A stretch of DNA of 64,000 nt from Nitrospirota bacterium (GCA_963790025.1 CAWBMP010000002.1:480001-544000), one strand, 5' to 3'; positions 1,083-54,672 are shown, counted from the stretch's first letter. A program made the numbers and translations. Notes: generated from the sequence alone by a model not told the origin.

Positions 1083-1137
1083 TTAGCCGCTTAAAGCCTG
1101 AGGATTGAGGTCTGAAGCGTCCTCTAACCTCAATCCT

Positions 1138-4950: not shown

Positions 4951-4957
4951 TGTACTG

Positions 4958-12673: not shown

Positions 12674-12761
12674 TAAAAAAGTAAGCACTAGGCAGTAAGG
12701 AGTGAGCAGTAAAGTCTCTTTTCCCCTTGCTACTTACTACCTGTTAGTTTATGATATTTCG

Positions 12762-21525: not shown

Positions 21526-21567
21526 AATACCTCCTTAACATATTGCATTAATGTGAAAAAAAATAAT

Positions 21568-22416: not shown

Positions 22417-22425
22417 CCTCTCACT

Positions 22426-22977: not shown

Positions 22978-22986
22978 CTTAACTCC

Positions 22987-23604: not shown

Positions 23605-23621
23605 ATTCCATCAGACATTAT

Positions 23622-37292: not shown

Positions 37293-37300
37293 CTCTACTC

Positions 37301-40040: not shown

Positions 40041-40063
40041 CTCTTTTTTCTCTCCTTCAATCT

Positions 40064-41005
40064 TTAAACGTTACTGTATTTGCTGTTTGATACTATTTTG
40101 TAGCCTTTTATTAATTCCTTGATACCCATCTCAAGGGAAAAGGCAGGCTTGAAACCCTTCCCTTCGACCTTTTCATTGGATACAATGTAATCTCTTTTGT
40201 CCGGGTCCTCGCCGATGGGTGCCTCGAGATATACAAAGTCCGGGACCTGTTCCTTGATTTTTGCACAAAGCTCTATTTTGGAAAGGTTTGCTTCGGAAAG
40301 GCCGACATTATAGGCTTCGTTCTTCATGGCATCGAAATTGTCCATACCGTGGATGAACGCCCTTGCGACATCGCGAATGTGTATATAATTCCTTTTAAAG
40401 TGACCTTCGAAAACAACAACGAACCTGTCTTTGACCGCTCTATATGTAAAATCATTTACCAGCAGGTCTATTCTCATTCTGGGGGCCATGCCAAAGACGG
40501 TCGCCAGCCTGAAGCTTATTGAGTTTCCCCTGTCAAGGACAATCTTTTCAGCCTCCACTTTGGCCTTCCCATACAGGGAGATCGGATTCAGCGGTGTTTG
40601 TTCAGTGCAGAAGATGCCTTTTTGGCCGATGCCGTAACCGCTGTTCGTGGTCGGTATTATTATCCTCTGCTCTTTCGAAGCGAGCCCTGCCAAAGAGGCG
40701 ATCGCATCCCTGTTAGTGGTAATGGTCCCAATTTTATCTCTTCCGCAAAGCGGAGCGCCAACCAGTGCCGCCAAAGGAATAATATAATCTGCCTTTTTAA
40801 GGAGCCCCTTGAGGATGTCCTCATCCCTGGCATCGCCCCTTACCACATCGAAATTCTCGTTGGCACAACAATCAAGAAGAGAATTCTGAGCAAACATGAA
40901 GGTATCCAGGACGGTCACCTTGTGCCCCAATCTCAACAACTCAGGGACGAGTATCGATCCCAGATAACCAGCGCCGCCCGTAACCAAAACAGTGTTCTTC
41001 ATCAA
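40064..41005 (-). CDS. NAD-dependent sugar epimerase/dehydratase (extended SDR)
   Basis: TGGAGYLGS, YGKAK, RLATVFG, RMRIDLLVN. Confidence 0.88.
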   Translation of the reverse strand: MMKNTVLVTGGAGYLGSILVPELLRLGHKVTVLDTFMFAQNSLLDCCANENFDVVRGDARDEDILKGLLKKADYIIPLAALVGAPLCGRDKIGTITTNRDAIASLAGLASKEQRIIIPTTNSGYGIGQKGIFCTEQTPLNPISLYGKAKVEAEKIVLDRGNSISFRLATVFGMAPRMRIDLLVNDFTYRAVKDRFVVVFEGHFKRNYIHIRDVARAFIHGMDNFDAMKNEAYNVGLSEANLSKIELCAKIKEQVPDFVYLEAPIGEDPDKRDYIVSNEKVEGKGFKPAFSLEMGIKELIKGYKIVSNSKYSNV

Positions 41006-41054
41006 TTATTCCTCCTGGCCTCTTGCCCCGGCGTTGAACTTGCCGACACAAATC

Positions 41055-42065
41055 TCATTTGTTTTTTCCATTTTGATAACCCGGCATGTATACGATAATC
41101 TCAGAGCCGGTGAAGTCAAATTTAAAAGGTATGTGCAGATACCCCTTCAACGCTTTTTTTATCCTGTCTTGATACTCGGGTTCTGCATAAAAAAGCATAA
41201 AACCGCCGCCGCCCGCGCCCAGGAGCTTTCCGCCGAGAGCGCCGTTTTTAATAGCGGCTTCATATATGGCATCGACCTCACTGTTACTGATTTTGTCAGA
41301 CAGCCTTCTCTTTAACGACCATGTTTCACTTAAAAGCCTTCCAAAATCAGACAGGTCATCCCTCCCGGAAATGAGTGTCTTATATGCCTCATTGACCAGC
41401 TCTCTCATAGCAGACAATTCTTTTTTGTTTTTGGGAGTATTTTGTATCTGCTCTTTGGCTATCTCCGATGCATATCTCGCTATCCCGGTAAAAAAGAGCA
41501 TGAACTTGCTTTCAAAATTTCTTAAATGTTTTTCTTTCATTATTATGGGCTCGACAATAATCTCTCCGTTTTGCAAAAATTCAATCGTGTTCAGTCCCCC
41601 GCATGCGGCCCACACCTGGTCCTGCGAGCCCACGTTTTCTTTTATGAGGTTTTGTTCTATATGTATCGCCGTTTTATAAAGTTCTTCCTTTGTAATAATT
41701 TTCCCATCAAGTGCATAGAGGGTTTTAAGGAGCCCTACGGTAAATGCCGAGCTTGAACCCATGCCTGAGCGGGCAGGAATATCCCCGTCGTGATGGACCT
41801 CTATCCCATGCCCGATTTCCAAATACTTCAATGTTTCCCTCGCGGACGGGTGCTGGATTTCATCCAGATGCAATACTGTTTCCACTTTTGAATAGGCAAT
41901 CCTGTGTTTATGCTCAAAAAAAGGCGGAAGTTCCCTGCAAGTTATATAGCAGTATTTATCTATTGCGACTCCCAACACCTTACCCCCATTTTCCAGATAC
42001 CATGAAGGGTAATCCGTTCCTCCCCCGAAAAAAGAGATCCTATGGGGTGTCCTTGAAATAATCAT
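41055..42065 (-). CDS. GHMP sugar kinase, HddA-like
   Basis: RISFFGGGTD, SGMGSSS, GSQDQ, GKLLGAGGGG. Confidence 0.9.
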   Translation of the reverse strand: MIISRTPHRISFFGGGTDYPSWYLENGGKVLGVAIDKYCYITCRELPPFFEHKHRIAYSKVETVLHLDEIQHPSARETLKYLEIGHGIEVHHDGDIPARSGMGSSSAFTVGLLKTLYALDGKIITKEELYKTAIHIEQNLIKENVGSQDQVWAACGGLNTIEFLQNGEIIVEPIIMKEKHLRNFESKFMLFFTGIARYASEIAKEQIQNTPKNKKELSAMRELVNEAYKTLISGRDDLSDFGRLLSETWSLKRRLSDKISNSEVDAIYEAAIKNGALGGKLLGAGGGGFMLFYAEPEYQDRIKKALKGYLHIPFKFDFTGSEIIVYMPGYQNGKNK

Positions 42066-42775
42066 TGTAATGCTCCTTTAACAACATGCTTTAATTCCTG
42101 TTGCGCCCTTTTATAATCTTCGGGGACCCCGATATCAATAAAGTAATTGTCACAAATGAAAGCAAAAGAACTTATTTTCATTACATTATTATATAAAAAA
42201 TCGACCTCAAAAGAAAAAGCGCCTTCACTGCACTCAAAAAAATCTGAAATGGCCTTCCCAATCACAATGACCCCGCCGTTTACGTACCCAAAAGGCTTGA
42301 AAGACTTCTCGTCAAATCCTATTACTCTCTTTTCCTTCACTATCACTGTTCCGTATCTGTCGACATAATGCATGGGTTTTACGGCAAACGTTAATAATGA
42401 GTCATGTTCGATATGAAAATCAACCATTTTTCTAAGGTCAACGTCAAAAAAAGTATCGCCATTCAGCACAACAGCGTTGTCCCCTCTAACTTTCTTCAAG
42501 GCTTCTCTTATGGCGCCGCCTGTTCCGAGCGGTGTCTCTTCAACAATGTACTCTATATCGATTTTTTTATAGTTAGCGCCGAAATAATCCCTGATGACCT
42601 CGTATTTATATCCCACAGAAAGCAAAATCCTGCCTATATCCTGCCCTGACAGGTAGTCCATTACATAAGACAGAAAAGGCCTGCCGTTTATATCAGCCAT
42701 GGGTTTGGGAACGTCTCTCACCACGCTCTGAAGCCGCGTGCCGACCCCCCCGGCCAGGATCACCGCTTCCATCAA
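42062..42775 (-). CDS. Sugar-1-phosphate guanylyltransferase, HddC-like
   Basis: LAGGVGTRL, PKPMA, LGTGGA, NGDTF, FIDIGVPED. Confidence 0.88.
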   Translation of the reverse strand: MMEAVILAGGVGTRLQSVVRDVPKPMADINGRPFLSYVMDYLSGQDIGRILLSVGYKYEVIRDYFGANYKKIDIEYIVEETPLGTGGAIREALKKVRGDNAVVLNGDTFFDVDLRKMVDFHIEHDSLLTFAVKPMHYVDRYGTVIVKEKRVIGFDEKSFKPFGYVNGGVIVIGKAISDFFECSEGAFSFEVDFLYNNVMKISSFAFICDNYFIDIGVPEDYKRAQQELKHVVKGALQ

Positions 42776-43887
42776 TCCATTATGCCCGACACAATGCCGC
42801 TTACCATCCTTGCAATGGCGGGAGACGCTGTCAGTCCCGGCGACTCTATGCCTATAAGGTTGATAAGGCCAGGCAATCCCTTATCCGCTTCATCGGTAAT
42901 TACAAAGTCACTTGCCTTTTCGCCAGGACCGGATAATTTGGGACGAATGCCAGCCATATCCGGAATAAATGCATCTTCTTCGAGACCGGGTATGATCTTT
43001 AATGCCCCCTTGTAAAAGGCTTCTTTACTGGCAGCGTCAACCTTGTAATCGATACGATCGACATATTCGGTGTCAGGCCCGAAGCGCAGCCTTCCCCCAA
43101 GATCGAGCGTTGCATGGACCCCCAAACCTATTAATTCTTGGTGAGGCACAGGGTAGACAAGCATCTTAACTGGCGAGGTGTTTGCGTATGAAAAATATGA
43201 GCCCTTGCAAAACCTGAGTTTATATCCGCTCGCTGTTACGTCTATACCCGCGAGTCCGGCAATATAGTCTGCCGAAAGTCCGGCACAATTTATAACCACC
43301 TTAGACCTGAGCTGATAGTTCTCCTGCTTAATACCGACAATAAAGCCGTCTCTCTCATTGTTAATCTGTACCACTTCGCTGTTAAATGCAAAGATAACTC
43401 CCTTGTCTTCAGCCTTATTGAAGAAATGCTTCATCAAAGAATGTGAATCTACAATCCCGGTATTGGGGGAATAAATGGCTGCTATAGCGTTGGTATTGGG
43501 CTCAATCCTTTTAACCTCTTGCGCATCCAGAAGCGTCAAATCTTTCACCCGGTTCTTTGCACCTTTTTCAAGGAATTCCTCGAGGGACTTCAATTCGGTC
43601 CGGTCCGTAGCGACTATTAGTTTGCCCAATCTTTTGTGAGGGATCGAATATTCCTTACATTCCCTGTATAATAGTTCAGCGCCATTTACACATAACCGCG
43701 CCTTTAAAGAGCCTTCCTGATAATATATGCCTGAATGTATAACCTCGCTGTTGCGGCTGCTCGTCTCCTGACCAAAGCGATCGTGTCTCTCAAGGACTGC
43801 GATATTCTCGAATATCTCCGACAATTCCGCGGCAATCGCAAGGCCGACAACACCGGCCCCAATAATGGTTATCTCAACCTGGTCCAT
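42772..43887 (-). CDS. FAD-dependent oxidoreductase, L-2-hydroxyglutarate oxidase-like
   Basis: IGAGVVG, TSSRNSEVIHSGIYY, GIRPK, GIESPGLT. Confidence 0.88.
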   Translation of the reverse strand: MDQVEITIIGAGVVGLAIAAELSEIFENIAVLERHDRFGQETSSRNSEVIHSGIYYQEGSLKARLCVNGAELLYRECKEYSIPHKRLGKLIVATDRTELKSLEEFLEKGAKNRVKDLTLLDAQEVKRIEPNTNAIAAIYSPNTGIVDSHSLMKHFFNKAEDKGVIFAFNSEVVQINNERDGFIVGIKQENYQLRSKVVINCAGLSADYIAGLAGIDVTASGYKLRFCKGSYFSYANTSPVKMLVYPVPHQELIGLGVHATLDLGGRLRFGPDTEYVDRIDYKVDAASKEAFYKGALKIIPGLEEDAFIPDMAGIRPKLSGPGEKASDFVITDEADKGLPGLINLIGIESPGLTASPAIARMVSGIVSGIMD

Positions 43888-43969: not shown

Positions 43970-44575
43970 CTAATCGGATACGGCAGCGGGAACGGCGGCA
44001 GGATTTCTTGAAATGGCCTTTGTTATGCTGTACCCGTTCGATTCCGGCGAACCATACAGCTTGATTGCCATCCCATAGCCGACCGCCTCGACGTCACCTT
44101 TAATATCCCTTGTCCATCCTTCTGAATTATAAAAAGTAATTGCTGCCGTATGGCCCAGTAAGTCATATTTCTTTATTGCATTACGGATGTATGCTTGATA
44201 GGGAGCAAAAATGAGAACAAAACCGTGCACGCCCCATATCCTTTTGGCAAGATAAAACCCAGTCACCAGCAGCGATATCATTGAAACGGCATAAACCAGC
44301 CTGAAAACCATGACGGGGTCACTAGCGACCATTTCCATGAAAGCGCACATAAATGAAGCGAGCATAGGCCGCCAGATCGCCGGGGAATCGAGTGGTGCGG
44401 CTATATACCCATTACCAAGCAGGAGGTTTTTTCCAATCATTATTTCAAAGACATTCCACTGGATTGTTGGAAGCAATCCGCCAACATGAAAGAAGAAGGC
44501 TGCACCAACAATTGCCCATAGAACCGGATATTCGGCAGCAATTGCTGTCAACATGAATTTGATTCTGGAAATCAT
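43970..44575 (-). pseudogene. Truncated or internally deleted membrane protein, possibly a GT-C remnant
   Basis: ATG 44575 overlaps the stop of the upstream gene (ATGA). TM, then GKNLLLGNGY...WRP.L, then TMs resembles a GT-C N-terminus, but the product is only ~200 aa. Confidence 0.45.
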
Positions 44576-45528
44576 ATATCCTGAGGGATGCCGCCCAATC
44601 TCATGTGGGAATGCAGAAAATAGGGCAATCCTGCGGCAACCGTAAAGAAAAAAGCCCCTGCCTGATATGCAAAAGACAGGGCCAGGGCCCCCTCCTTGGG
44701 CACGCCGAACTGAGACAGCGCCATCCAGAACGCCAGCTGCATAACGCCAAGACCGCCGGGAGTGGATGGAATAAGGAGACCGAGGTTTATAAACAGGAAC
44801 AGTACGGCAGCGGATTCGAATTTCAACCGGACGCCCTGAGAGATAAGCGCAAGGACCCCCCAATAATTGAACATCCAAACAATGAAGCTGAGCACGAGGA
44901 GATGCAGTATTTTGCCTGACTGATTTAACCGTGCCAGTGGAGAGAAAAAATTGTTCATAATGTGCAGGACCCTCTCAGGAATAAACAACATCCGGCCTCT
45001 GAGCGTCCTTAGCCGGTCCACGTTGAGCAGGAAAAACAGCATTATAAAGACCAATAACCCCCATACGGCAATCACTATTCTTGCACCTTTAAACGACAGC
45101 CCGTGGATGCCGTAAAACAAACATGCCATGAGCAGCAGCCCCAGCGATAATACGTCGAAAATGCGCTCGATGAAAACTGTGGAAAGAATATATGTCCTGG
45201 AGGCCCCGGTATGAGAGGCAAGATAGTATGCACGGTACAATTCCCCAGCGCGGAGAGGCAGAATATTGTTGACCATATATCCGACCATTATTCCCCCGAA
45301 AAGTGTTGACAATCTTATGTCGCCCACAGGCGACGTAGTGATGCGCCACATATAAGCCCGCACAACACAACTCGCCCCGAAACAGGCTATGCAAAGCAGC
45401 AGTGCAAAATAATTAATGCCCCTGAATGCGTAAATGAATTCCCTGAAGTTTATTCTATAAAATGCTCCGGCCAGAAATGCAATGCTGATTATCGTCCCAA
45501 GGGCAATTTTTGTGGTTCGTTTAGTCAT
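44572..45528 (-). CDS. Lysylphosphatidylglycerol-synthase TM / flippase-like membrane protein
   Basis: NNILPLRAGE, ERIFD, IPSTPGGLG motifs, ~8 TMs. Confidence 0.85.
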   Translation of the reverse strand: MTKRTTKIALGTIISIAFLAGAFYRINFREFIYAFRGINYFALLLCIACFGASCVVRAYMWRITTSPVGDIRLSTLFGGIMVGYMVNNILPLRAGELYRAYYLASHTGASRTYILSTVFIERIFDVLSLGLLLMACLFYGIHGLSFKGARIVIAVWGLLVFIMLFFLLNVDRLRTLRGRMLFIPERVLHIMNNFFSPLARLNQSGKILHLLVLSFIVWMFNYWGVLALISQGVRLKFESAAVLFLFINLGLLIPSTPGGLGVMQLAFWMALSQFGVPKEGALALSFAYQAGAFFFTVAAGLPYFLHSHMRLGGIPQDI

Positions 45529-45537
45529 CTCGATAAT

Positions 45538-45596
45538 ACAGTGTCAGTGATAGTGTCCGTTTAAGGATTCCTGCATGTACACTGCACTGACACTGT
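45538..45596. repeat. Short palindromic dispersed repeat, copy 2
   Basis: ACAGTGTCAGTG...TTTAAGGATTCCT...CACTGACACTGT with perfect 12-bp arms; same core as 7581-7650. Confidence 0.75.
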
Positions 45597-46306
45597 TATA
45601 TTTCATATCCGGCTGACTGGGCGTCTTTATAAAACATCTTCACCGTATCCAGTGAAAGTTCATCAAGTTCCTTGTCCACCAATGAAAGTTTTTTGAGGAT
45701 ATCATTGGTGACAGTAATAATATGGCAGCCGCATGCTTCAGCGTGGAATATATTGAGAAGCTCCCTGGAGCTTGCCCATAAGAGTTCGGCTTTGAAATTG
45801 GGTTTAAGTATTTCTGCTGATTTCTTCATAATGGGCATAGGATCGCGACCCGTATCAGCAATCCTGCCTGCGAACACGGACACTATGCTGTTCACCTTCG
45901 TCGACAGAACTTCAGACAAAGCCTCGACCTGACCGAGCGTCAGAATCGCGGTTATATTCAATGACAGGCCATCAGCAGAAAGCTTCTTGATGAGCGGTAT
46001 AGAAGACTCACCCTTCGTATTAGTTATAGGAATCTTAATGTTTACGTTTTTCCCCCAGCTGGCTATTTCGCGCGCTTCCCGTTCCATTTTGTCGAACTCA
46101 TCGGAAAACACCTCGAAAGATATGGGATGGTCCTTTATTTCAGCCAGTACTGCCTTTGCAAATGCCTTGTAATCGGTCACCCCTGCCTTTTTCATGAGCG
46201 TAGGATTAGTCGTAAAACCTTTCACTACCCCCCGTTTGTGCGCCTCTTTCATTTCCGCTATGTCGGCTCCGTCCGCAAAAAGCTTGATTTTCAGCATGCT
46301 CTTCAT
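45596..46306 (-). CDS. Small transaldolase-family protein (LmbR-like candidate)
   Basis: FADGA, GFTTNPTLM, ISFEV, IKIP Schiff-base Lys, SVFAGRIAD, LLWAS. Confidence 0.9.
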   Translation of the reverse strand: MKSMLKIKLFADGADIAEMKEAHKRGVVKGFTTNPTLMKKAGVTDYKAFAKAVLAEIKDHPISFEVFSDEFDKMEREAREIASWGKNVNIKIPITNTKGESSIPLIKKLSADGLSLNITAILTLGQVEALSEVLSTKVNSIVSVFAGRIADTGRDPMPIMKKSAEILKPNFKAELLWASSRELLNIFHAEACGCHIITVTNDILKKLSLVDKELDELSLDTVKMFYKDAQSAGYEI

Positions 46307-46899
46307 TTCTCCTCCATGTTTACCGATAAGGTATTATTTATAATATCAACAGCTTCTTTGAGGTCTCCTGCCCTGAACTCCGGTGAACTCTTACCTCTTT
46401 TATTCTTAGAGTGACCCTCGTCGATCAGTATAGTCTTCAAACCGAAAGACTGTCCGCATAAGGTGTCCGAATCCTGATCTCCTATAAACCAGGAATCCGT
46501 AATAGAAAAATCGAAATCCCTTTTAGCCTCTTCCAAAAAAAGCGTGCCCGGTTTGCGGCAGCGGCAAACGCCCGTCAATTCCGAAACAAGACCGTTCGGG
46601 TGATGGTAACAGTAATAATATCGCGCAAAACCAATCCCGTGTTCCAAAAAAATCCTATGGAGTGACTCATGAATGGCTTTGATGTTTTCCATGGATGTTT
46701 TCCCTTTCGCAAAGCTCGGCTGATTGGAAACAAGAAAAAGCAGGTACTCCATTTCCATCAGGGCACGTAATGACGACACTGTCCATGGAAAAAGCTCAAG
46801 GTCAGCTACATTATGGGGAGATTCGTATTCCCCTGTATTCGGATTGAATACCAGCCGGTTTATTACCCCGTCCCTGTCCAGAAATACAGCCTTTGGCAT
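46303..46899 (-). CDS. HAD-IIIA sugar bisphosphate phosphatase, GmhB-like
   Basis: FLDRDGVIN, VSNQ, CYHHP...CRCRKP, IGD. Confidence 0.9.
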   Translation of the reverse strand: MPKAVFLDRDGVINRLVFNPNTGEYESPHNVADLELFPWTVSSLRALMEMEYLLFLVSNQPSFAKGKTSMENIKAIHESLHRIFLEHGIGFARYYYCYHHPNGLVSELTGVCRCRKPGTLFLEEAKRDFDFSITDSWFIGDQDSDTLCGQSFGLKTILIDEGHSKNKRGKSSPEFRAGDLKEAVDIINNTLSVNMEEK

Positions 46900-48219
46900 C
46901 TATTTAACGGATTCCCATTTCATTTCGTATGCCTTGAGTGCGGGATGGGAGACAACCAAATGCCAGATGACTCCCTGAAAGGCTTCGGTATGGGGAGTCA
47001 CGGTTTCGTTGTTCACTGTCGGCACAAGCACGCAGGCATCAGCCACTTTCGCTGTATATCCGCCGTCTCTTCCCACCACACCGATAATACTGGCGCCCGT
47101 TTCTCTTGCATATTTCAAGGCATGGACAAGATTTGCGCTGATATTTTTTTCAGCATTGCCGCCGCCAACTGAGAAGACGAAGATGCAGTCATTGGCAGTT
47201 AGCCGGCTGCCTTTCAGCCAGTTGACAAACACGGTTTCCCATCCATCGTCATTAACGCGGGCTGTCAGTTCCGATACATTATCAGTGGGGGCATAGGACT
47301 CGATACCTGCAATCTTCCTGAAGTCGTTTACGGCATGGGCCGCATTACCAGCTCCTCCGCCGACTCCCAGAATGAAGAGTCTTCCCTTCTTCTCTCTCGT
47401 ATCGAGTAAAACCTTGACGGCTTTCTCTACCGCGTCCCTGTTTATGGAATTTGCAATGGTGACGACTTCAGACAAGTACATGTCTATGTAATCCCTGTAC
47501 CCCACTTTATTCCTCCCTTTTTTCCCATTTTCAAAAAAAATTCGCGTCTCTTCAAGCCCTTCATGAGAACCTATCTCGTAAAAGCGTTCCCTCACTTCGT
47601 AGCCCGCCATCTCTCCCCTGGATATCAAGTCCTTATATAGTTCCGCAAGATCAAAGGCCTCTCCTTCTCTTCTTTCTTCGAATACTTCTCTCTTCAGCAA
47701 AGAAAGACCATAGTCAATATACTCCATGTCAGGAGTTATGTCCTTCTTGTCGTATTTGACAATATTGTCGTTGTGATACACAATGTTGCTTCTGTCCCAC
47801 CGGTCCCTGTTATGCAGAACTGTCATAAGGGCAGGTTTTCCGCTCACCTCGAATTTCCGTTGTATGTCAGAATAGTCGCAATCCAGATATGAATCGCCGT
47901 ACAATACGAAAAAAGCGCTTCCCAGCATGGGCAGGGCTTTTTTCAGCGAACCGCCAGTACCCAGAAGAACGGGACCGTCATATGAATATTCGATTTGCAA
48001 TCCCATTTTGTCGCCGTTGCCGAGAGCGTCACGGACCATCTCACCCAAATAGCCTACGCATAGGACCACCTCCCGTATAGAGTTTCTTTTCAGAAGCTCA
48101 AGCTGATGCACTATGAAAGGCCGTCCGCCTATTTCCACCAGGGCCTTGGGTATTTTTTCCGTAACCGGCCTGAGTCTCGTTGCCAGGCCGCCTGCCAGAA
48201 TTGCAACAGGGAGCATCAC
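46900..48219 (-). CDS. Nucleotidyltransferase fused in frame to an SIS-domain phosphosugar isomerase
   Basis: LAGGLATRL...YGDSY...EIG (NTase); GVGGGAGNAAHAVND, FSVGGG, HTE (SIS). Internal GGAGG + GTG at 47504. Confidence 0.85.
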   Translation of the reverse strand: MMLPVAILAGGLATRLRPVTEKIPKALVEIGGRPFIVHQLELLKRNSIREVVLCVGYLGEMVRDALGNGDKMGLQIEYSYDGPVLLGTGGSLKKALPMLGSAFFVLYGDSYLDCDYSDIQRKFEVSGKPALMTVLHNRDRWDRSNIVYHNDNIVKYDKKDITPDMEYIDYGLSLLKREVFEERREGEAFDLAELYKDLISRGEMAGYEVRERFYEIGSHEGLEETRIFFENGKKGRNKVGYRDYIDMYLSEVVTIANSINRDAVEKAVKVLLDTREKKGRLFILGVGGGAGNAAHAVNDFRKIAGIESYAPTDNVSELTARVNDDGWETVFVNWLKGSRLTANDCIFVFSVGGGNAEKNISANLVHALKYARETGASIIGVVGRDGGYTAKVADACVLVPTVNNETVTPHTEAFQGVIWHLVVSHPALKAYEMKWESVK

Positions 48220-49199
48220 GACTGCGTGACCACCTTGGTCCCCTCAAAATCGAAACGGAAGCGTACTTCGTACATTCCGGCCCCGGCCATGGCATGGCGC
48301 AACCGCCTCTTGTCTTCAGTGTAAAACATTAGGAACCCACCGCCTCCCGCGCCTATGAGTTTTCCTCCAAGAGCGCCGTTTTTCAGCGCCAGATTATACA
48401 GGTCGTCGATATGGGAGTTGCTCATATTGCCGGAGCGTTTCTTTTTATATTCCCAGTGCTCGTTCATTATACGGGCAAATTCGCCAAGATCGCCGGACTC
48501 AAAGGCATCTTTGCTCCTGTACCCCATTTCCTTCACAAAATGCAGATTTGCAATCATTGAGTTGTCTTTCTTCTTACTCTTGTCATCCTGTTCCTTAAGT
48601 ATGGATGATGCGCTCCGGGAATATCCTGTGAAAAAAAGCAGCAGGTTGTCTTCAAGATTGTATAACGTCTCGCTGGATATTTTAAGCGGCCACGCTTCAA
48701 CCTGCCCATCGGTCAGGAATTTAAAACAGGTAATCCCTCCGTAAGCAGCTATATACTGGTCCTGTTTTCCTATGGGCTCCCCCAGTTTTTCTATCTCGAT
48801 ATGACATGCCTGCTCGGCCAACTCCCGGGGATGAACAAGGTTCTTTTTTAAAGTATGCAACGCCTTGAGAAGCGCTGTTGTAAAACTCCCTGATGAACCC
48901 AGGCCTGTACCTGCCGGGATATCAGCCATGCTGGTTATTTCAAGATACGGAGCAGCAATGTCCAATGCCTTCAGGGATTCCCTGATAATAGGGTGCTGGA
49001 CATCATCAATATTAGTAACTTTTTCCATTCTTGAATATTTGATAATTAATTCCTGAAGAAAGGTATGATGCAACGTGATATATACATATTTATCAATAGC
49101 TGCCGCAATGAGAAATCCCGTATGTTCCCGGTAGTAGGAAGGCAAATCGGTGCCACCGCCGCCAAGGGAAATTCTTAAAGGGCTCCTCGTGATAATCAT
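48216..49199 (-). CDS. GHMP sugar kinase, HddA/LmbP-like
   Basis: RISLGGGGTD, GTGLGSS, GKQDQ, GKLIGAGGGG. Confidence 0.9.
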   Translation of the reverse strand: MIITRSPLRISLGGGGTDLPSYYREHTGFLIAAAIDKYVYITLHHTFLQELIIKYSRMEKVTNIDDVQHPIIRESLKALDIAAPYLEITSMADIPAGTGLGSSGSFTTALLKALHTLKKNLVHPRELAEQACHIEIEKLGEPIGKQDQYIAAYGGITCFKFLTDGQVEAWPLKISSETLYNLEDNLLLFFTGYSRSASSILKEQDDKSKKKDNSMIANLHFVKEMGYRSKDAFESGDLGEFARIMNEHWEYKKKRSGNMSNSHIDDLYNLALKNGALGGKLIGAGGGGFLMFYTEDKRRLRHAMAGAGMYEVRFRFDFEGTKVVTQS

Positions 49200-50173
49200 C
49201 TGTATCTTCCCCCATAGAGCTTATGAACAACTTCGAGGGCCGCCTTTGCATCCTCGAGATTTCCAGCAGGCTCAATATCCGTACCGATAGCCTGCACAAA
49301 ATAATCGAATTCAGTCTTCCATGAGTTGTCGGGAAAGGGATATTCCCATATAGTTGTTTCCGGGGGGCCCATCTGGGGAAGCATTCTATAGTAGGTCAAA
49401 CGTTCAACTCCATAACTGCCTCCAAGTCCGTCAATCTGGAGCTTTCCGTTCCTGCCGTATATTTCGAGGCAAAACATGTTTTTCCACTCGGAGCAACTGG
49501 CATGCAACCACGCCATCTGGTCCTTTTTCGTACGCATGGCTATAAAACCGTTATCTTCAACAGGCATGTTCCAGAAATACGTACCGACAAACCCCTCAAC
49601 TACATCGAAATCCCCCATAATCCAGCGGGACAAGTCAATTAAATGGACACCCTGATCCAGGAGTTCCCCACCACCGGCTACATGAGGATCTGCCCTCCAT
49701 TCCCGATCATAGCCGATGCGTCCGCCCTGCCCGTATCTTCCCCGGATAAACATCAATTCACCGAGAACGCCCGAATCGATAATCTTTTTTGCTTTCATCA
49801 TGGCCGGATGGAATCTCAGGTTGAACCCGACTTTTACCTTTCGTCCAAGTGAACGTGCCTTTTCGATGAGAGGCCCTATTTCCTGTGGGGAACGGGCCGC
49901 GGGTTTTTCCACTAAGACGTGCTTGCCATGCTCCACAGCAAACAGGCTGACAGGTGTAAGCCAGTCATTAGTTGTGGCAACAATTACAAGTTCGACTTCA
50001 GGATGGCCGACTGCCGTTCTCCAGTCGGTCGTCGCAACCGCGTTATCTCCGAAGCCGCTGACACACTGCGCCCTTTGGATATTATTGTCTGCAGTTATTA
50101 TCAACTGGTGCCTACCGAGGGCCCTCGCCCTTTTCTCCCCTATCAACCCGCAGCCCACAATCGCAATTTTCAT
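49196..50173 (-). CDS. Gfo/Idh/MocA oxidoreductase
   Basis: GCGLIG, VEKP, GFNLRFHP, GGGELLDQGVHLID. Confidence 0.9.
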   Translation of the reverse strand: MKIAIVGCGLIGEKRARALGRHQLIITADNNIQRAQCVSGFGDNAVATTDWRTAVGHPEVELVIVATTNDWLTPVSLFAVEHGKHVLVEKPAARSPQEIGPLIEKARSLGRKVKVGFNLRFHPAMMKAKKIIDSGVLGELMFIRGRYGQGGRIGYDREWRADPHVAGGGELLDQGVHLIDLSRWIMGDFDVVEGFVGTYFWNMPVEDNGFIAMRTKKDQMAWLHASCSEWKNMFCLEIYGRNGKLQIDGLGGSYGVERLTYYRMLPQMGPPETTIWEYPFPDNSWKTEFDYFVQAIGTDIEPAGNLEDAKAALEVVHKLYGGRYR

Positions 50174-50199
50174 ATAAGCGAACCCACGTCACTTCCCCG

Positions 50200-51016
50200 C
50201 TTCCCGGGAAAATCCTTTTCAAGATGATTTCGTTGCAAATTCCCTGTAATTTTCACGAACGTTATAAGCCTGCCAGATATCCTTATCATTTGCCTTTCCC
50301 GTTGCTGCAGAGAAACTCTAGGTAAGCACATAGAGAGTCCCCGACTTCAGGTGCCGTCCCGCCTGTGTCCTTTTGTTTCAGAGATCTTTCTAAAACTTTC
50401 CCCGGCTTTCCCAGCGCTCTCGATTATTTCCTGCGTCATTCCGGTCCTTACCGCTCCGGGCGCAACAGCGTTGATGCCAAATGCAGACACACGGCACTCT
50501 TCAGAAACTGTTTCGACCAGACGCAGCACGCCTGTCTTCGCCACTCCATAGGCAGAGAAATTAGGACGGGCGTGAGCCGCCACCCGAAAAATGGATGATT
50601 ATGCCGTAACGCTTTTCTTTCATATGGGGAATAATATATTTACATGAATAAAAGATACCGAACAGGTTTATTTCAATGGCCCTTGTCCATTCTGTGCTGT
50701 CCACATCTTCTATTTGTCCCTTGGGGCCGTATACGCCGGCATTATTGACAAATATGTCGATACTATTCAGATCATCAATACTCCTGGCGATGAAACTGTT
50801 CACATCGGACTCAACAGAGACATCGGCTTTTAATGAGATTATCTTCTGGCTTGGTCCAGCCATACACATCAGCCTCTCTCTCGCATTCTCAAGCTTAATA
50901 TCATCTCTAGCGCAAATTACCAGTGATGCTCCTTCTTTCACAAACTCTTCAGCAATTGCCAATCCGAGCCCCTGATTGGCGCCTGTAATAATAGCATTAC
51001 GGTTTTTCAGTCGCAC
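50200..51016 (-). pseudogene. Short-chain dehydrogenase/reductase, frameshifted
   Basis: TGANQGLG, NNAG and SGGG in one frame; RPNFSAYGVAK (YxxxK) and NAVAPG in another after ~50575; 3' end further degraded and its boundary is approximate. Confidence 0.8.
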
Positions 51017-51019
51017 TCA

Positions 51020-52305
51020 CGGGCCGCCACGGTATCATAGATTTATGTTATCCTTAGTCACTAAAAAGGCCCCGAACAAATCCGTTCTCAATGCACAACT
51101 TTACCTTTTAAAGAGCTCACGGATCTCTTGTCTATTTCCCGCAAAGAAGGGTGCTCGGTTGCAACAATAATGCAGCAGCTCCGAGCAGGGCATCTTCAGA
51201 AGATGCCGCAAGGGTAATGATTCCCTTCAAATTGTCGGGCAATTCCTGAACATGCGGGTCAACTGCCGAATAATAGCCCCTTGACTGTTCAGCCACTTAC
51301 ATAATTCAACCGACCAGGACCTCCTGAGAGCGCCGGTCCCGGGCTTATACGTCAGACCCAAAACAGTGATTGCCCTGCCCTTCAAATCCTTTAGGTATTC
51401 CATGCACTTTCTTTTTGCCCAGTCCTTATGGTGTGCGTTACTCTCTCTTACGGCCTCAAACAGATAATTGATACGCTTGTGCTCCTCTCCGATTTTAATA
51501 AGAAAATTTATGTCTCTAGCCAATGTGCCGCCGGCGAAAGCTGACCCCGGCTTAACATATGCCTTTTGTCCGATCCTCTCCTCTGTCTTCAGTCCCCGTT
51601 CCACTTCAAGGGCATCAGCGCCCACTGATTCGCACAACGCAGCTATTTCATCCGCAAAAACAATCGATATTGCAAGGAATGCATTGATTGCATGCTTCGT
51701 GATCTCTGCGGATGCAATTCCCATCCATTCAAGCCGATCGCTTATGGATGAAAAAATTGGACTAATTAATGCAATATCCTGCCTTTTCCGAACACCGATT
51801 ACTATCCTGTCCGGGTTCTCAAATACCTGAATTGCTTTTCCCAGCCGCAGGTTTTCGGGAGAGTAGAGCAAAAATAAAATTACGGTCGAGGAAACGCTCA
51901 CTTGAAGGTATTTTTCAATCCTTTCGGCAAAATGTACGGGCACCTGGGATGATATGATAATCCTGCCTATCCGGCTCCCGCCGAAAATCCGATATGCACC
52001 GTATCTTCCATTCTATGAAGTCAATGTCCGCCAGGTCATCCTCGTCAACCGGGGTATCAAATGCAATCCATACAGCATCGGCATCTTTTAGAGCGGCTGC
52101 AGGATCATCAGTAAAATCAAGACTTCTATCTTCGAGCCCTTGTCGTACTAATTCCTCAAGCCCCGGTTCATATACAGGGAGCTGTCCCTTCTTCAATCCG
52201 GAAATAGTTTCTTTATCATAGTCCAGTCCCGTTACGGCAAGTCCTCTCCGGGCCATACAGGCAGCAATAACGGTCCCAAGATGCCATAGCCCGAAAACAC
52301 AAATA
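51020..52305 (-). pseudogene. UDP-glucose/GDP-mannose dehydrogenase-family protein without the catalytic Cys (LmbL-like candidate), multiply frameshifted
   Basis: NICVFGLWHLG with no start codon, LPVYEPGL, FDTPVD, SPENLRLG, AEITKHAIN, FAGGTLARD, LGLTYKP spread over at least three frames. Confidence 0.8.
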
Positions 52306-53256
52306 TTCTCCTTTCAAACACCCAGGGGTTTTCTTCAGAAATTCCACTGTCCTGATAACAGCGTCCTGTATTGTCAGCCTGGGCCGCCACCCGAGGTTCC
52401 TGATCCTCGAGCAGTCCAGAAAAATAAACGGGCTGTCGCCAATCCATCCCCGCTCTCCGCCTGCATATTTCAGTGCAGGCTTAATCCCCAGATTTTCAGT
52501 AATCCAGGCGATGGAATTATTGACTTCACAGTATTCATCTGTTCCAAGATTTAGAATGTTCACTTTCTCATGGGCCTTATCGGCAGCGAGGAGCATCGCA
52601 TCGATACAATCCTGAACATAAAGGTATGACTTCCGCTGGTGTCCGTTTCCCAGGACGAACAATTCGTTAGGATTTGCCAGCAGCTTATTGTAAAAATCGA
52701 AGACATGCCCGTGAGTGTACCGCTCTCCCAGAATGGAAACGAATCTAAAAATCCACGCCTGGAAGCCGAAGCCTTCACAGTAGGCCGAAATCAAACTTTC
52801 TCCTGCAAGCTTGGAGGCGCCGTAAAGCGATGTCTGGACAGGGAACGGAGCGTTTTCCGGCGTAGGGAAAACATCCGGCTCTCCGTAAACAGAACCCGTT
52901 GAGGAGAAGGCTATCTTTTTAATTCCATTTGCCCTCATCGCCTCAAGGACATTAAATGTTGCAATAGTATTCTGCTCAAGATCTTTACGTGGGTGTTCCG
53001 TCCCAAAACGGACGTCCGCATTGGCTGCAAAGTGAAAAACAAAATCGCAACCCTGCATAGCCGCGTTCAGGGTTTCCGTATTGAGAAGGTCGTCCCTCAC
53101 AAGGATAAACCTCTTCGAACTTCCAGCCAGTTCGATGAACTCTTCGAACCCTGTTGAAAAATTGTCATATCCAACCACATAATGCCCATCCTGCAGAAGC
53201 CGGTCTGTCAGGGAACTTCCGATAAAACCGGCGCATCCCGTTATAAAATAGCGCAT
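52216..53256 (-). CDS. NAD-dependent epimerase (LmbM-like candidate); C-terminus altered by small deletions
   Basis: TGCAGFIGS, AANADV, SSTGSVYG, YGASK, GWIGD; the natural-looking tail NPWVFERR is in another frame at ~52330. Confidence 0.85.
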   Translation of the reverse strand: MRYFITGCAGFIGSSLTDRLLQDGHYVVGYDNFSTGFEEFIELAGSSKRFILVRDDLLNTETLNAAMQGCDFVFHFAANADVRFGTEHPRKDLEQNTIATFNVLEAMRANGIKKIAFSSTGSVYGEPDVFPTPENAPFPVQTSLYGASKLAGESLISAYCEGFGFQAWIFRFVSILGERYTHGHVFDFYNKLLANPNELFVLGNGHQRKSYLYVQDCIDAMLLAADKAHEKVNILNLGTDEYCEVNNSIAWITENLGIKPALKYAGGERGWIGDSPFIFLDCSRIRNLGWRPRLTIQDAVIRTVEFLKKTPGCLKGEYLCFRAMASWDRYCCLYGPERTCRNGTGL

Positions 53257-53265
53257 ATCATATCC

Positions 53266-54672
53266 TCATTTTTCTCCTTTCCTGTCTTCGTACAACGTTC
53301 CAAACCTGAATCTGAACAATGCCCAGATCCATAACAGCGGGTCCTTAATTAAAGAAACTTTTTTCCCTTGCTTGAACGAACGGGAATTATAATTTACAGG
53401 AATTTCCAGCGGCCGGTATCCTTTTCTCAATAATTTTATTACAATTTCCCAGTCAAAATCAAATCTGTTCGCCTTGAATGTCAACCCATAAAGACAATCG
53501 CGCCGGAAGATTTTATACATGGTAAACGGATCTTTCAGCTTTGAACCGCAAAAAAGATTCAAAAGGGAAGTGAAAAAAATCTGCCCAAAATTCATGATCA
53601 GCGACATCTGGGGTTGATCGGTAAAATGGCGCATTTTCCAGCCTTTTGAATGCCGAGACCCGAGAACAAACGCCTTTTGGTATTTCATAAGGGGTTCCAG
53701 CAGTTCATCGTAATCGTTAAGATCATATTCAAGGTCCCCGTCCTGGATCATTATGAAATCCCCGGCAGCGTATTGCAACCCTGTTCGGACCGCATGCCCC
53801 TTCCCTTGAGGCCTGTCCTCGAATACGAGCCTGACTCCCGGGGTGTCTTTGTAGCGCAGTACCTCTTCCCGGGTTCCATCAGTCGAATTGCTTTCCACAA
53901 CGATGACTTCTCTGTCCAGCCCCGGCAGTTCCTTTGCAAGCAGCGTTTCCATGAGTTCCGGAAAGGTTTCCTTTTCGTTGTAAACCGGTAAAATAACAGA
54001 AAGAGCAGGCTTGCTTTTCGCAGGCGACTTCCGGGACATGACAACCATAAACTGCTTGTTGCGGGAAATGCCGACATCGCGGAACCATGTCTTTGCCAGG
54101 GCATTCTGTATTGTCTGGGAATCGAAATAGTGAAGGTAATCGACCGGAACACCACCTCCGTTGCCGGTCACTGAGCTTTTGGGCCCGATATCGCATGAAG
54201 GAGTGGCAATCAAGAGACGGCCATCCGGTTTGAGTGCAGAATGTACCTTGAGCAACAGTTCTATGGGGTCCCGAACATGCCCGATAACATCAAACAAGGC
54301 ACAGACGTCGAACTGGCCGGAAGGCAGGTTTCCATATCCGGAAATATCGATGGACTGTACTTCAAACCCCGCCTCCATCGCCGCCGTGATCAAAGATCCA
54401 TTGCTGGAGCCGATTTCGAGAAGTCTTCCTTTTTCCTGGCCCGAATAATCAAGCAGACTCTTAAGAAATAATGGCACATCATAAAAACGGCTTTCATCAT
54501 GACGCCGCTGCAACCTTTCATCAGCCGGCTGCGGATTAAGGAAAACAAAGCCGCAGTCCTCGCATTGATATACAGCTTTCCCGTTCCTTACAAACGAATA
54601 ATGGATCCGGTTGCTGTCGCAAAGATAACAAGCGGGTTTGAAATTTGTTTCATTTTTAATTAGCAGGATCAA
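53266..54672 (-). CDS. Zn-ribbon/SAM-methyltransferase-like domain fused to a DPM1-like (polyprenyl-P) GT2
   Basis: CYLC...CEDC, LLEIGSSNG, FDVIGHV.DP; then ILPVYNE, GKGHAV, IQDGDLEYD, FVLGSR, FDWE. Confidence 0.82.
   Translation of the reverse strand: MILLIKNETNFKPACYLCDSNRIHYSFVRNGKAVYQCEDCGFVFLNPQPADERLQRRHDESRFYDVPLFLKSLLDYSGQEKGRLLEIGSSNGSLITAAMEAGFEVQSIDISGYGNLPSGQFDVCALFDVIGHVRDPIELLLKVHSALKPDGRLLIATPSCDIGPKSSVTGNGGGVPVDYLHYFDSQTIQNALAKTWFRDVGISRNKQFMVVMSRKSPAKSKPALSVILPVYNEKETFPELMETLLAKELPGLDREVIVVESNSTDGTREEVLRYKDTPGVRLVFEDRPQGKGHAVRTGLQYAAGDFIMIQDGDLEYDLNDYDELLEPLMKYQKAFVLGSRHSKGWKMRHFTDQPQMSLIMNFGQIFFTSLLNLFCGSKLKDPFTMYKIFRRDCLYGLTFKANRFDFDWEIVIKLLRKGYRPLEIPVNYNSRSFKQGKKVSLIKDPLLWIWALFRFRFGTLYEDRKGEK

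Follow-up and report, generated by a model that had tools for sequence, protein, structure and literature searches.

The minus-strand genes between 45596 and 53256 of the window (the whole 64,000-nucleotide stretch of Nitrospirota bacterium DNA analysed here) constitute a dedicated and conserved cassette, which starts with its own transaldolase and would probably deliver an activated seven- or eight-carbon sugar to the cell surface. Every coordinate and family call was confirmed, and the contiguous run of eight families given in the preliminary description stands for position, family and order, but that description did not mention that two members of the run, the SDR and the UGD-like gene, are disrupted. 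The run opens with an extended-SDR NAD epimerase/dehydratase-family protein (EPI, 52216..53256; Pfam Epimerase, PF01370, 5.7e-47), followed by pseudogenes of a UGD-family protein without the catalytic cysteine (UGD*, 51013..52313) and of a classical SDR (50170..51016), the 3' limits of both being approximate. The genes beyond are intact: a Gfo/Idh/MocA oxidoreductase (Gfo, 49196..50173; Pfam GFO_IDH_MocA N and C domains), an HddA-like GHMP anomeric sugar-phosphate kinase (48216..49199; Pfam GHMP_kinases_N/C), a fusion of NTP_transferase and SIS_2 (46900..48219; both domains found by Pfam) in which the sugar-1-phosphate nucleotidyltransferase occupies residues 1-230 and the SIS ketose-phosphate isomerase residues 240-439, a GmhB-like HAD-IIIA sugar-bisphosphate phosphatase (46303..46899; Pfam Hydrolase_like) and finally the transaldolase (TAL, 45596..46306; 236 aa; Pfam TAL_FSA, 2.6e-45), which is of the Staphylococcus/Coxiella type.

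Complete cassettes with the same order as in the window, EPI-UGD-SDR-GFO-GHMP-NTP-SIS-HAD-TAL, are found in L006, L013 and Rhizobium jaguaris (L028); the arrangement is therefore not due to chance, and intact copies do exist elsewhere. All cassette genes are also present, in rearranged order, in Lawsonia intracellularis (L027), and a 5.6-kb contig (L019) holds a partial UGD*-SDR-GFO-HAD-TAL-SIS cassette, so that copies span R. jaguaris, L. intracellularis and three metagenome genomes. In a comparison set of 25 related genome loci from many phyla, 10 of them on contigs shorter than 10 kb, 23 have one or more of SIS, HAD, GHMP and NTP no further than 10 kb from TAL, the partners near TAL being SIS (18 loci), HAD (21), NTP (13) and GHMP (12). 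"Short" cassettes without UGD*, SDR and GFO appear complete in L001, L003 and L015. Natural fusions, as read from the protein sequences, tie the steps of the cassette together: TAL-SIS in both orders (P0285, TAL first; P0347, SIS first), HAD-SIS in 29 of 120 SIS relatives, NTP-SIS in L004 and 9 of the 120 as well as in the window, and SDR with UGD*, again in both orders (SDR-UGD* in P0367 and P0382, UGD*-SDR in P0400 and P0410). Myxococcota and Acidobacteriota have the cassette too, HAD-SIS fusions included.

The SIS, GHMP, HAD and NTP families are those of the GDP-D-glycero-alpha-D-manno-heptose pathway (GmhA, HddA, GmhB, HddC), with the reactions presumably following one another in the same way, and enzymes of that pathway also provide the nearest structures: solved heptose kinases for the GHMP kinase (3k85, 2.7e-50, then 4usk and 4n3o) and GmhA for the SIS domain (E 5e-9). 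The cassette departs from that pathway in its built-in and sometimes fused transaldolase, in changed SIS motifs and in scores below the equivalog cut-offs. On the NCBIfam models, the SIS domain reaches 50.5 bits for gmhA (cut-off 209.45), the kinase 178.3 for HddA (cut-off 600), the phosphatase 101.9 for GmhB (PRK08942; cut-off 178) and the NTP domain 101.1 for HddC (cut-off 300). By these curated cut-offs, all far from being reached, the four proteins are not equivalogs of GmhA, HddA, GmhB and HddC, in agreement with the earlier view that they are not canonical heptose enzymes. GDP as the activating nucleotide, also proposed earlier, finds no support here; the NTP domain scores higher on the MurU model (130.8 bits) than on HddC, both values being below cut-off. 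In alignments to 2i22 and 1tk9 the SIS domain reads GVGGGAGNAAHAVND and SVGGGNAEKNIS where GmhA has GNGGS..DA.H...E and STSGNS, residues which we take to hold the catalytic roles; the motifs GVGGGAGNAAH and FSVGGG previously pointed out are thus present and do differ from those of E. coli and C. jejuni GmhA. Among 120 SIS relatives, H..[ND]D is found in all and S[VI]GGG in 118, and the phosphate loop exceeds that of GmhA by 6 residues.

TAL scores 350.9 bits on TIGR02134, above the cut-off of 281.95 (413.4 bits for the TAL of the Coxiellaceae locus L007), and shares 56-73% identity with its counterparts in 24 of the 25 related loci, the exception being L024 (43%). This family also takes in transaldolases whose surroundings are sugar-catabolic or unrelated (in Lactobacillus, next to a PTS; in Treponema; on a Streptomyces plasmid). 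In trees such non-cassette TALs nest among the cassette TALs, and the hypothesis that the six TALs without a nearby cassette form one clade was rejected (p-AU 0.008); TAL therefore bears no sign of a special acceptor.

UGD* resembles the UDP-glucose/GDP-mannose 6-dehydrogenase family in its three domains and in the TIGR03026 score of its intact orthologues (291 bits against a cut-off of 189.8), but differs in the missing cysteine, GGTLARD or GGNLERD standing for GGSC(F/L)PKD (GGTLARD versus GGSCFPKD in solved UGDs). The position is Thr or Asn in all nine cassette-linked sequences (Thr in the window, L006, L013, L019, L027 and L028; Asn in L007, L008 and L010), and in the best 150 cluster representatives it is Thr in 121, Asn in 16, His in 3, Ala in 1, Cys in 1 and unmatched in 8. 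The UGDH mechanism, a four-electron oxidation to a uronic acid, relies on the catalytic cysteine. Since the UGD-like protein has none, it would not be expected to perform this four-electron oxidation, nor to act as a uronic-acid-forming dehydrogenase. Gfo shares 58% identity with its L006 and L013 orthologues (318-322 residues aligned) and has sugar 3-oxidoreductases (DgpA, 7xr9; 6a3f) as best solved relatives. For EPI, identity to the L006 orthologue is 70% across residues 1-315, and the best solved relative is 3ehe (GalE-1, 8.7e-85). The suggested pairing of Gfo with the UGD-like protein is not, to judge by the sequenced loci, an obligate one: Gfo is intact here beside a dead UGD* and a dead SDR, and in L016 it adjoins core genes without these two, on a contig that begins inside EPI (GFO is present in L005 as well, on a contig that begins inside GFO). 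In the best 150 representatives UGD* is fused with SDR and never with Gfo.

What sugar might such a cassette make? The reading we lean to, tentatively and at somewhat short of even confidence, is that the cassette is self-contained and would provide a nucleotide-activated higher-carbon sugar for the O-antigen-type glycan of a diderm bacterium by an octose-type route. Its steps are proposed from family membership and from gene or domain linkage. TAL would shift a C3 unit from fructose-6-phosphate or sedoheptulose-7-phosphate to an aldose phosphate, most likely ribose-5-phosphate, giving octulose-8-phosphate as LmbR does (PMC5854111). The SIS domain would convert the ketose phosphate to an aldose phosphate, the GHMP kinase would place a phosphate on C1, the HAD phosphatase would remove the terminal phosphate, and the nucleotidyltransferase domain would form an NDP-sugar, its base left unspecified, that the extended SDR may epimerise. 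In complete cassettes the cysteine-less UGD* could then carry out a two-electron oxidation and the fused or adjacent classical SDR reduce the resulting ketone, with Gfo perhaps adding a further redox step.

The model for this octose-type route is the lincomycin/celesticetin GDP-octose pathway, whose LmbR/N/P/K/O/M/L/Z families are listed in tables of PMC12945683 and PMC4351081. There, LmbR is the transaldolase, LmbN the isomerase, LmbP the kinase, LmbK the phosphatase, LmbO the guanylyltransferase, LmbM the epimerase, LmbL the dehydrogenase, LmbZ/CcbZ the oxidoreductase and LmbS the aminotransferase. As previously claimed, the match to these lists is one for one: compared by family alone (Pfam against the Lmb/Ccb tables), all eight, including the dedicated transaldolase and the pair of dehydrogenase-family and Gfo-family proteins, are in the window run, two as pseudogenes. 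CcbL (436 aa), CcbP (323), CcbO (232), CcbN (202) and CcbK (185) match the cassette proteins or domains in size. For several Ccb enzymes, the nearest non-lincosamide relatives come from phyla with this cassette, being Sorangium proteins for CcbN and CcbP (that of CcbN annotated "sugar phosphatase") and acidobacterial proteins for CcbK, CcbO and CcbZ; no Lmb or Ccb protein was found among solved chains or among the 120 proteins closest to a Streptomyces TAL. There are also differences. The cassette lies among O-antigen/glycan genes and not in an antibiotic cluster, and in place of an aminotransferase (LmbS/CcbS) it has a classical SDR that is often fused to the UGD-like protein. Pfam found no DegT-type gene in 45596-53256, and the only DegT-like genes among the loci, in L001 and L003, are at least 4.6 kb from TAL. 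LmbL and CcbZ are jointly assigned to the conversion of the GDP-octose, whereas the Gfo of the cassette also occurs without an intact UGD-like partner. Lastly, the window TAL, a 236-aa protein of general TIGR02134 type, is apparently unlike the 222-aa CcbR, whose nearest relative is a Cellulomonas transaldolase. The lincosamide-like octose reading thus fits the family set, which is not to say that it is proven.

A serious rival, which we hold to be possible but rather doubtful, is a modified heptose: TAL would only raise the supply of sedoheptulose-7-phosphate, a divergent GmhA/HddA/GmhB/HddC set would yield NDP-D-glycero-D-manno-heptose, and UGD* would oxidise the secondary C6 hydroxyl for the SDR to re-reduce, resulting in C6 epimerisation or a related change. 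The closest characterised relatives of the kinase, phosphatase and SIS isomerase are indeed heptose enzymes, as are the top NCBIfam names (GmhB, HddA); sedoheptulose-7-phosphate is the textbook product of a general transaldolase, and this TAL is a general enzyme not set apart from non-cassette ones; and a cysteine-less UGD* would suit secondary-alcohol oxidation no less for a heptose than for an octose. However, sedoheptulose-7-phosphate is a common metabolite and, to our knowledge, characterised heptose loci have no transaldolase, yet TAL and SIS are here fused in both orders, and TAL has been kept in the cassette across many phyla, Rhizobium and Myxococcota included. That all four enzymes fall so far under the heptose cut-offs also argues against a heptose.

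The Coxiella burnetii region CBU0674-CBU0678 bears on both readings. A partly similar set had been suggested for the Coxiella LPS locus, and the Coxiellaceae loci L007, L008 and L018 do carry TAL-SIS-HAD with two extended SDRs beside them (TAL 56-60% and SIS 57-58% identical to the window), L007 and L008 also having Gfo and a cysteine-less UGD-like gene. In contrast to the window, activation there involves a reversed HldE-type PfkB kinase plus cytidylyltransferase-like protein instead of GHMP and NTP_transferase, UGD* has Asn instead of Thr, and there is no classical SDR. PMC5843353 lists CBU0674 as an isomerase (annotated phosphoheptose isomerase), CBU0676 and CBU0677 as epimerases and CBU0678 as a kinase/adenylyltransferase of unknown role. 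The passages considered on Coxiella LPS name heptose, mannose, virenose, dihydrohydroxystreptose and Kdo as its sugars and do not name an octose; the reported D-glycero-D-manno-heptose and the annotation of CBU0674 favour the heptose. On the other side, according to PMC5843353, truncation of cbu0678 abolishes phase I LPS despite an intact CBU1655, the canonical HldE; the product of the cassette-type activating enzyme is therefore not replaced by ADP-heptose synthesis, which speaks against the heptose.

In this genome, UGD* and the SDR are pseudogenes among intact neighbours. The Pfam UDPG_MGDP_dh N and central domains of UGD* lie on separate ORFs (51915-52313 and 51227-52012), the frame changes relative to intact orthologues after residues ~116 and ~363, two more C-terminal pieces are in other frames, and no ATG, GTG or TTG opens the correct frame before 52256; at least 4 frameshifts are present. 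The SDR has at least 3: its Pfam adh_short match (50561-51016) is limited to profile positions 2-135 of 195, and the tblastn match to the L006 and L013 SDRs is spread over three frames, with jumps at about residues 150, 210 and 245. The breaks are not at homopolymers, 50174-52313 having a single run of 6 or more bases (0.47 per kb, versus 2.39 per kb in the window). In the EPI ORF, the orthologue match stops at residue 315 (52312), beyond which read-through adds a tail of 31 residues. The at least 7 frameshifts within 2.1 kb, the lost UGD* start and the read-through epimerase stop could be the first visible stage in the decay of a whole cassette already inactive in this genome, which we consider improbable: six neighbours are full length, with 55-74% identity to their best orthologues, and the apparently complete short cassettes indicate that the core need not fail when the tailoring pair is lost. 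The idea of an SDR acting on the UGD-like product is consistent with the UGD-SDR fusions, but both genes are dead here, and the neutral 8-deoxy-octose proposed earlier can thus not be made in this genome.

A DAO-family FAD oxidoreductase (42772..43887, minus strand; Pfam DAO, 1.4e-63), a possible accessory, is two genes away from TAL in the window and directly follows it, at 46-49% identity, in L001 and L003. That TAL uses another acceptor (e.g. a hexose-6-phosphate, or the phosphate of a deoxy or amino sugar), giving neither a plain heptose nor a lincosamide-type octose, seems very improbable. In its favour, the acceptor is not fixed by any sequence feature, the 6-residue insert sets the SIS phosphate loop apart from that of GmhA and the DAO flavoenzyme has no counterpart in either known pathway, but positive evidence is nil and the sole characterised precedent for a transaldolase feeding a SIS/kinase/phosphatase/nucleotidyltransferase set is LmbR with ribose-5-phosphate (PMC5854111).

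The surface-glycan setting first proposed for these genes is borne out by an O-antigen locus with waaA, lpxB, rmlABCD, Wzm/Wzt, Wzy_C and glycosyltransferases around the dedicated cassette. Upstream of the epimerase, a methyltransferase-GT2 fusion (53266..54672, minus strand; Pfam Methyltransf_23 and Glycos_transf_2) has below-cut-off NCBIfam matches to AglJ, ArnC-type and PpgS, and its GT2 part shares 58% identity with the Lawsonia GT2 adjoining EPI; by these similarities, it is a probable polyprenyl-phosphate sugar transferase for the cassette product. TAL is adjoined by a flippase-like membrane protein (LPG_synthase_TM; 44572..45528, minus strand; Pfam 3.2e-43; NCBIfam TIGR00374), a probable accessory whose family also follows TAL on Lawsonia plasmid 3; among the loci examined, GT2 and flippase neighbours are common to the window and Lawsonia only. 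Three-component extracytoplasmic glycosylation combines a GT2 polyprenyl-phosphate transferase, a small flippase and a YfhO-type transferase (CsbB/GtcA/YfhO). The cassette is likewise flanked by a GT2 (below cut-off), a flippase-like and a YfhO-family protein, but the GT2 has an N-terminal methyltransferase, the flippase-like protein is an LPG_synthase_TM and the host is a diderm. This bacterium would thus make the core sugar only, at most epimerised or modified by Gfo, and probably hand it on via the adjacent GT2, flippase-like and YfhO-like proteins.

The cassette very probably produces a higher-carbon, nucleotide-activated sugar destined for a surface glycan, as its gene linkage, fusions and context suggest. 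It occupies 45596-53256 of the minus strand as nine ORFs or ORF fragments lying head to tail, and ORF calls and Pfam families bear out the gene list and coordinates of the preliminary description. In transcription order, these are an NAD epimerase/dehydratase (EPI, 52216-53256), a UDP-glucose/GDP-mannose dehydrogenase in pieces (the UGD-like gene, 51227-52313), a short-chain dehydrogenase in pieces (SDR, 50347-51016), a Gfo/Idh/MocA oxidoreductase (Gfo, 49196-50173), a GHMP kinase (48216-49199), an NTP_transferase domain fused to SIS_2, i.e. a nucleotidyltransferase joined to a ketose-phosphate isomerase (NTP-SIS, 46900-48219), a HAD-IIIA phosphatase (46303-46899) and, last, a TAL_FSA transaldolase (TAL, 45596-46306). 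The proposed surface-glycan setting is confirmed as an O-antigen-type locus in a diderm: 3-5713 contains waaA, lpxB and a BamD-like gene, 20563-24533 contains rmlABCD, and the locus also carries an ABC-2 permease and ATPase, large glycosyltransferases, two YfhO-family proteins, a Wzy_C ligase-family protein, a PglF-like dehydratase and two initiating sugar transferases. Every gene between 19112 and 61861 is on one strand.

A second sugar-nucleotide gene set (34970-43887, minus strand) lies directly downstream of the cassette. It contains an HddC-like nucleotidyltransferase (251.8 bits, cut-off 300), an Fcl-like reductase (391.5 bits, cut-off 500), a DAO flavoenzyme, a second GHMP kinase, an extended SDR, a transketolase split into N and C subunits, a B12-radical SAM enzyme and a xylose-isomerase-like TIM barrel, and may be a route to a branched or C-methylated sugar. 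TPP enzymes also occur in Coxiellaceae loci (transketolase N and C in L008, E1_dh in L007). Four minus-strand genes (53266-57611, 44572-45528 and 26467-28992) resemble a three-component extracytoplasmic glycosylation set, here in a diderm: a methyltransferase-GT2 fusion (below-cut-off matches to polyprenyl-phosphate sugar transferases), a 980-aa YfhO-family protein, a flippase-like LPG_synthase_TM protein and a second YfhO-family protein of 841 aa. An ORF at 43970-44878 (minus) matches no family. From the listed TTG start, it shares 300 bases with the flippase-like gene; it seems likelier that translation begins at an internal Met and gives a shorter, hydrophobic protein. Flanked by lpxB and a sirohaem-synthase-like gene, 2301-4321 (minus) encodes a DegT aminotransferase together with a Gfo/Idh/MocA oxidoreductase, a pair resembling GnnA/GnnB, makers of the GlcN3N lipid A backbone.

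The cassette enzymes stand apart from GmhA, HddA, GmhB and HddC of canonical GDP-heptose synthesis, as had been expected, all four comparisons falling under the curated NCBIfam cut-offs: the isomerase scores 50.5 with gmhA (cut-off 209.45), the kinase 178.3 with HddA (600), the phosphatase 101.9 with GmhB (178) and the nucleotidyltransferase 101.1 with HddC (300). The nucleotidyltransferase scores 130.8 with MurU (cut-off 250) and, being below both cut-offs, does not allow the nucleotide to be named; 'GDP' is thus an assumption. The transaldolase matches the curated model TIGR02134 at 350.9 bits (cut-off 281.95). The isomerase motifs first quoted are present in the window. Alignments place HAVND where the E. 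coli and C. jejuni GmhA have HFAEE, and SVGGGNAEKNIS in place of STSGNS, in a loop six residues longer. The HAVND-type motif and the longer loop are kept in 118-120 of 120 family members. A search of the ESM Atlas with the SIS domain gave nothing but unnamed SIS clusters.

The UGD-like protein aligns over its full length with solved UGDs, with GGTLARD replacing GGSCFPKD. The cysteine position is occupied by Thr in the window and in five other loci (L006, L013, L019, L027, L028) and by Asn in three (L007, L008, L010); the sole canonical Cys among the loci is that of L002, in an unlinked UGD on the opposite strand. Among the best 150 cluster representatives of the UGD-like profile this residue is Thr in 121, Asn in 16, His in three, Ala in one and Cys in one, a tandem protein (eight did not match the pattern). 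In UGDH, the cysteine forms the thiohemiacetal required for the second oxidation, and we infer from its absence that the family stops at a two-electron oxidation. Four of these 150 representatives are fused to a classical SDR, two in each order (P0367, P0382, P0400, P0410), two have tandem UGD domains (P0362 and P0467, one of which keeps the canonical GGGCLPKD motif), and none is fused to Gfo. Joint folding of the UGD-like protein (alignment A1) and Gfo (A2) scored 0.00 in both runs, which argues neither for nor against binding. Fusions also involve the isomerase: the best 120 relatives of a SIS protein comprise 80 with SIS alone, 29 HAD-SIS, nine NTP-SIS with the same architecture as in the window, one TAL-SIS (P0285) and one SIS-TAL (P0347), the last two confirmed by pairwise alignment and NCBIfam.

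A TAL scan of one genome per species yielded 25 loci from at least ten phyla, which were compared with the window's proteins by tblastn. In 23 of them TAL has at least one of SIS, HAD, GHMP and NTP no more than 10 kb away, the two others (L020 and L022) both being Bacteroidota. HAD is found near TAL in 21 loci, SIS in 18, an extended SDR in 16, NTP in 13, GHMP in 12, Gfo in 11, the UGD-like gene in seven and a classical SDR in three, all lower bounds because 10 of the 25 contigs fall short of 10 kb. Copies of the cassette do exist in other genomes. The order EPI-UGD-SDR-GFO-GHMP-NTP-SIS-HAD-TAL is found in L013 (a proteobacterial MAG) and in L006 (Omnitrophota, without SIS within reach), and a 5.6-kb Saccharimonadota contig (L019) reads UGD-SDR-GFO-HAD-TAL-SIS. 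A protein search of a plasmid collection (35 records) added pRCCGE525c of Rhizobium jaguaris CCGE525 (L028), with the full cassette in the window's order, and plasmid 3 of Lawsonia intracellularis (L027), with all cassette genes, the same flippase-like gene after TAL and, beside EPI, a GT2 58% identical to that of the window. Five 'short' cassettes (L001, L003, L015, L017, L021) are without UGD, SDR and Gfo and carry a different type of epimerase, with about 40% identity (51-70% in loci with Gfo or UGD). The cassette is thus modular, with a core of TAL, SIS, HAD, GHMP and NTP (plus EPI), an accessory UGD-SDR pair, and Gfo varying separately. In E. coli genomes there was no DNA match to TAL-HAD-NTP/SIS, so no structurally solved E. 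coli O-antigen is usable for comparison. A full-text literature search, with most subscription journals outside its scope, found no prior description of such a cassette. In an alphaproteobacterial MAG (L023, 11803-14053) the NTP-SIS gene is split; between the two parts is an opposite-strand 431-aa ORF (12249-13544), which may be an insertion. Flavin amine-oxidase/NAD_binding_8 proteins, the family type of sugar pyranose-furanose mutases, are encoded at most 3 kb downstream of two cassettes (L013, 11679-13088; L002, 13441-14724).

The transaldolase itself does not appear to be specialised. TIGR02134 proteins occur in unrelated settings, namely Lactobacillaceae plasmids, Treponema saccharophilum (beside GH88 and ABC sugar transporters) and a plasmid of Streptomyces sp. 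3211 (beside arabinonolactone oxidase and HxpB, not within an lmb-like cluster). In trees, non-cassette TALs nest among cassette TALs, and the AU test rejected a single clade of six TALs without a cassette nearby (p 0.008; L032 and L024 were left out, and the group was named from gene context after the first tree); a specialised cassette-only clade is rejected. On the Lactobacillaceae plasmids (L030, 5992-9304; L031, 5992-9323), TAL comes first after a LacI regulator and is followed by a mannose-family PTS, which suggests a catabolic role.

Tailoring of the lincosamide sugar involves 6-epimerisation, 6,8-dehydration, 4-epimerisation and 6-transamination. Passages on the Lmb/Ccb enzymes (PMC12945683, PMC4351081) assign R to the transaldolase, N to the isomerase, P to the kinase, K to the phosphatase, O to the nucleotidyltransferase, M to the epimerase, L to the dehydrogenase, Z to the oxidoreductase and S to the aminotransferase, and a passage on LmbR names fructose-6-P or sedoheptulose-7-P as donors and ribose-5-P as acceptor (PMC5854111). 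According to the supplement of PMC4351081, a list as of 2015, the nearest non-lincosamide relatives are from Sorangium for CcbN (a 'sugar phosphatase', 39%) and CcbP (37%), Solibacter for CcbK (49%), Acidobacterium for CcbO (38%), an uncultured acidobacterium for CcbZ (40%), Thermodesulfatator for CcbL (33%) and Cellulomonas for CcbR (222 aa; a transaldolase, 47%). The cassette families include six Myxococcota loci (L011, L012, L014, L015, L017, L021) and a Bryobacteraceae protein (P0338). One of these loci, L015 of Polyangiaceae, encodes a HAD-SIS fusion in a 422-aa ORF, and such a fusion would explain the 'phosphatase' label on the match of the CcbN isomerase. This circumstantial evidence suggests that the cassette's families include the isomerase and kinase of the lincosamide route, while its transaldolase would be a separate recruitment. 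No Lmb or Ccb chain came up when six cassette proteins were searched against the PDB, the 120 relatives listed for the Streptomyces sp. 3211 TAL (at least 61% identity) included no named lincosamide producer, and no Sorangium entry was among the matches listed for the Polyangiaceae HAD-SIS protein.

A partial likeness to the Coxiella LPS locus, suggested in the preliminary description, holds against the passages of Beare et al. 2018 on these genes. Coxiellaceae MAG loci carry TAL-SIS-HAD alongside a divergent gene block, which in L007 contains two extended SDRs, a reversed HldE-type kinase/nucleotidyltransferase, Gfo, a cysteine-less UGD, a reductase-like SDR, a methyltransferase and a TPP enzyme. 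The gene kinds match those of CBU0674-CBU0678, described in these passages as a phosphoheptose isomerase (CBU0674), epimerases (CBU0676 and CBU0677) and a protein with reversed domains and unknown function (CBU0678) (PMC5843353). There, truncation of cbu0678 abolishes phase I LPS despite a full-length CBU1655, the canonical HldE (PMC5843353); the cassette-type enzyme therefore seems to make something that ADP-heptose synthesis does not replace. Passages of a review and a preprint, both from 2026, describe the role of CBU0678 as still unclear, and those literature passages that treat the sugar composition of Coxiella LPS list no octose.

The predicted product may be an octose, a reading to which we give slightly less than an even chance. 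It draws on the following: (i), the cassette retains a TAL, in some cases as a fusion, even though sedoheptulose-7-P is widely present in metabolism; (ii), the families match one for one those of the only characterised pathway beginning with a transaldolase; (iii), the enzymes are distant from canonical heptose enzymes and, (iv), the cbu0678 genetics, as the passages report them, point the same way. Against an octose, TAL is ordinary, the nearest characterised relatives are heptose enzymes and Gfo is loosely coupled to the UGD-like gene; a modified heptose is a credible product, at clearly less than an even chance. In the octose reading, the cysteine-less UGD-like enzyme coupled to the SDR would perform redox tailoring of the side chain.

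Such tailoring is not possible in this genome, and neither is the 8-deoxy sugar put forward in the preliminary description, the UGD-like gene and the SDR being pseudogenes. Intact orthologues are 316-317 aa long for EPI, 442 aa for the UGD-like protein, 287-292 aa for the SDR and 329-331 aa for Gfo. The window's UGD-like gene matches residues 9-116 in one frame and 122-363 in another, with two more C-terminal pieces in other frames, and its correct frame has no start codon before 52256. The SDR match is spread over three frames, and the epimerase ORF matches its orthologues to residue 315, followed by a 31-residue read-through. Between 50170 and 52313 at least seven frameshifts are counted. 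Sequencing error is unlikely: the breaks lie outside homopolymers and the other 60 kb of the window has long intact ORFs. We therefore take both as probable real pseudogenes. That the whole cassette is decaying here, a question separate from product identity, we consider improbable.

A product other than an octose or a modified heptose is very improbable. Taken as a whole, and tentatively, the octose reading would describe a widespread, hitherto undescribed NDP-octose pathway feeding straight-chain, eight-carbon sugars into the surface glycans of many diderms, among them Rhizobium, Lawsonia, Myxococcota, Acidobacteriota, candidate phyla and, with HldE-type activation, Coxiellaceae. Tailoring would be by the cysteine-less UGD and SDR, and in evolution the cassette would be the source of the lincosamide sugar genes. 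Whichever sugar is made, the cassette defines a SIS isomerase family automatically annotated as sedoheptulose-7-P isomerase and a large UGD-like family without the catalytic cysteine (at least 141 clusters at 50% identity among the best 150), and provides a concrete hypothesis for the unassigned LPS genes adjoining CBU0678. The harmless, culturable carrier Rhizobium jaguaris CCGE525 makes the product question directly testable. Should the product prove to be an octose, straight-chain eight-carbon aldoses would extend beyond one antibiotic family and rank among the common building blocks of surface glycans in bacteria, and an ancestry could be assigned to the lincosamide sugar genes.
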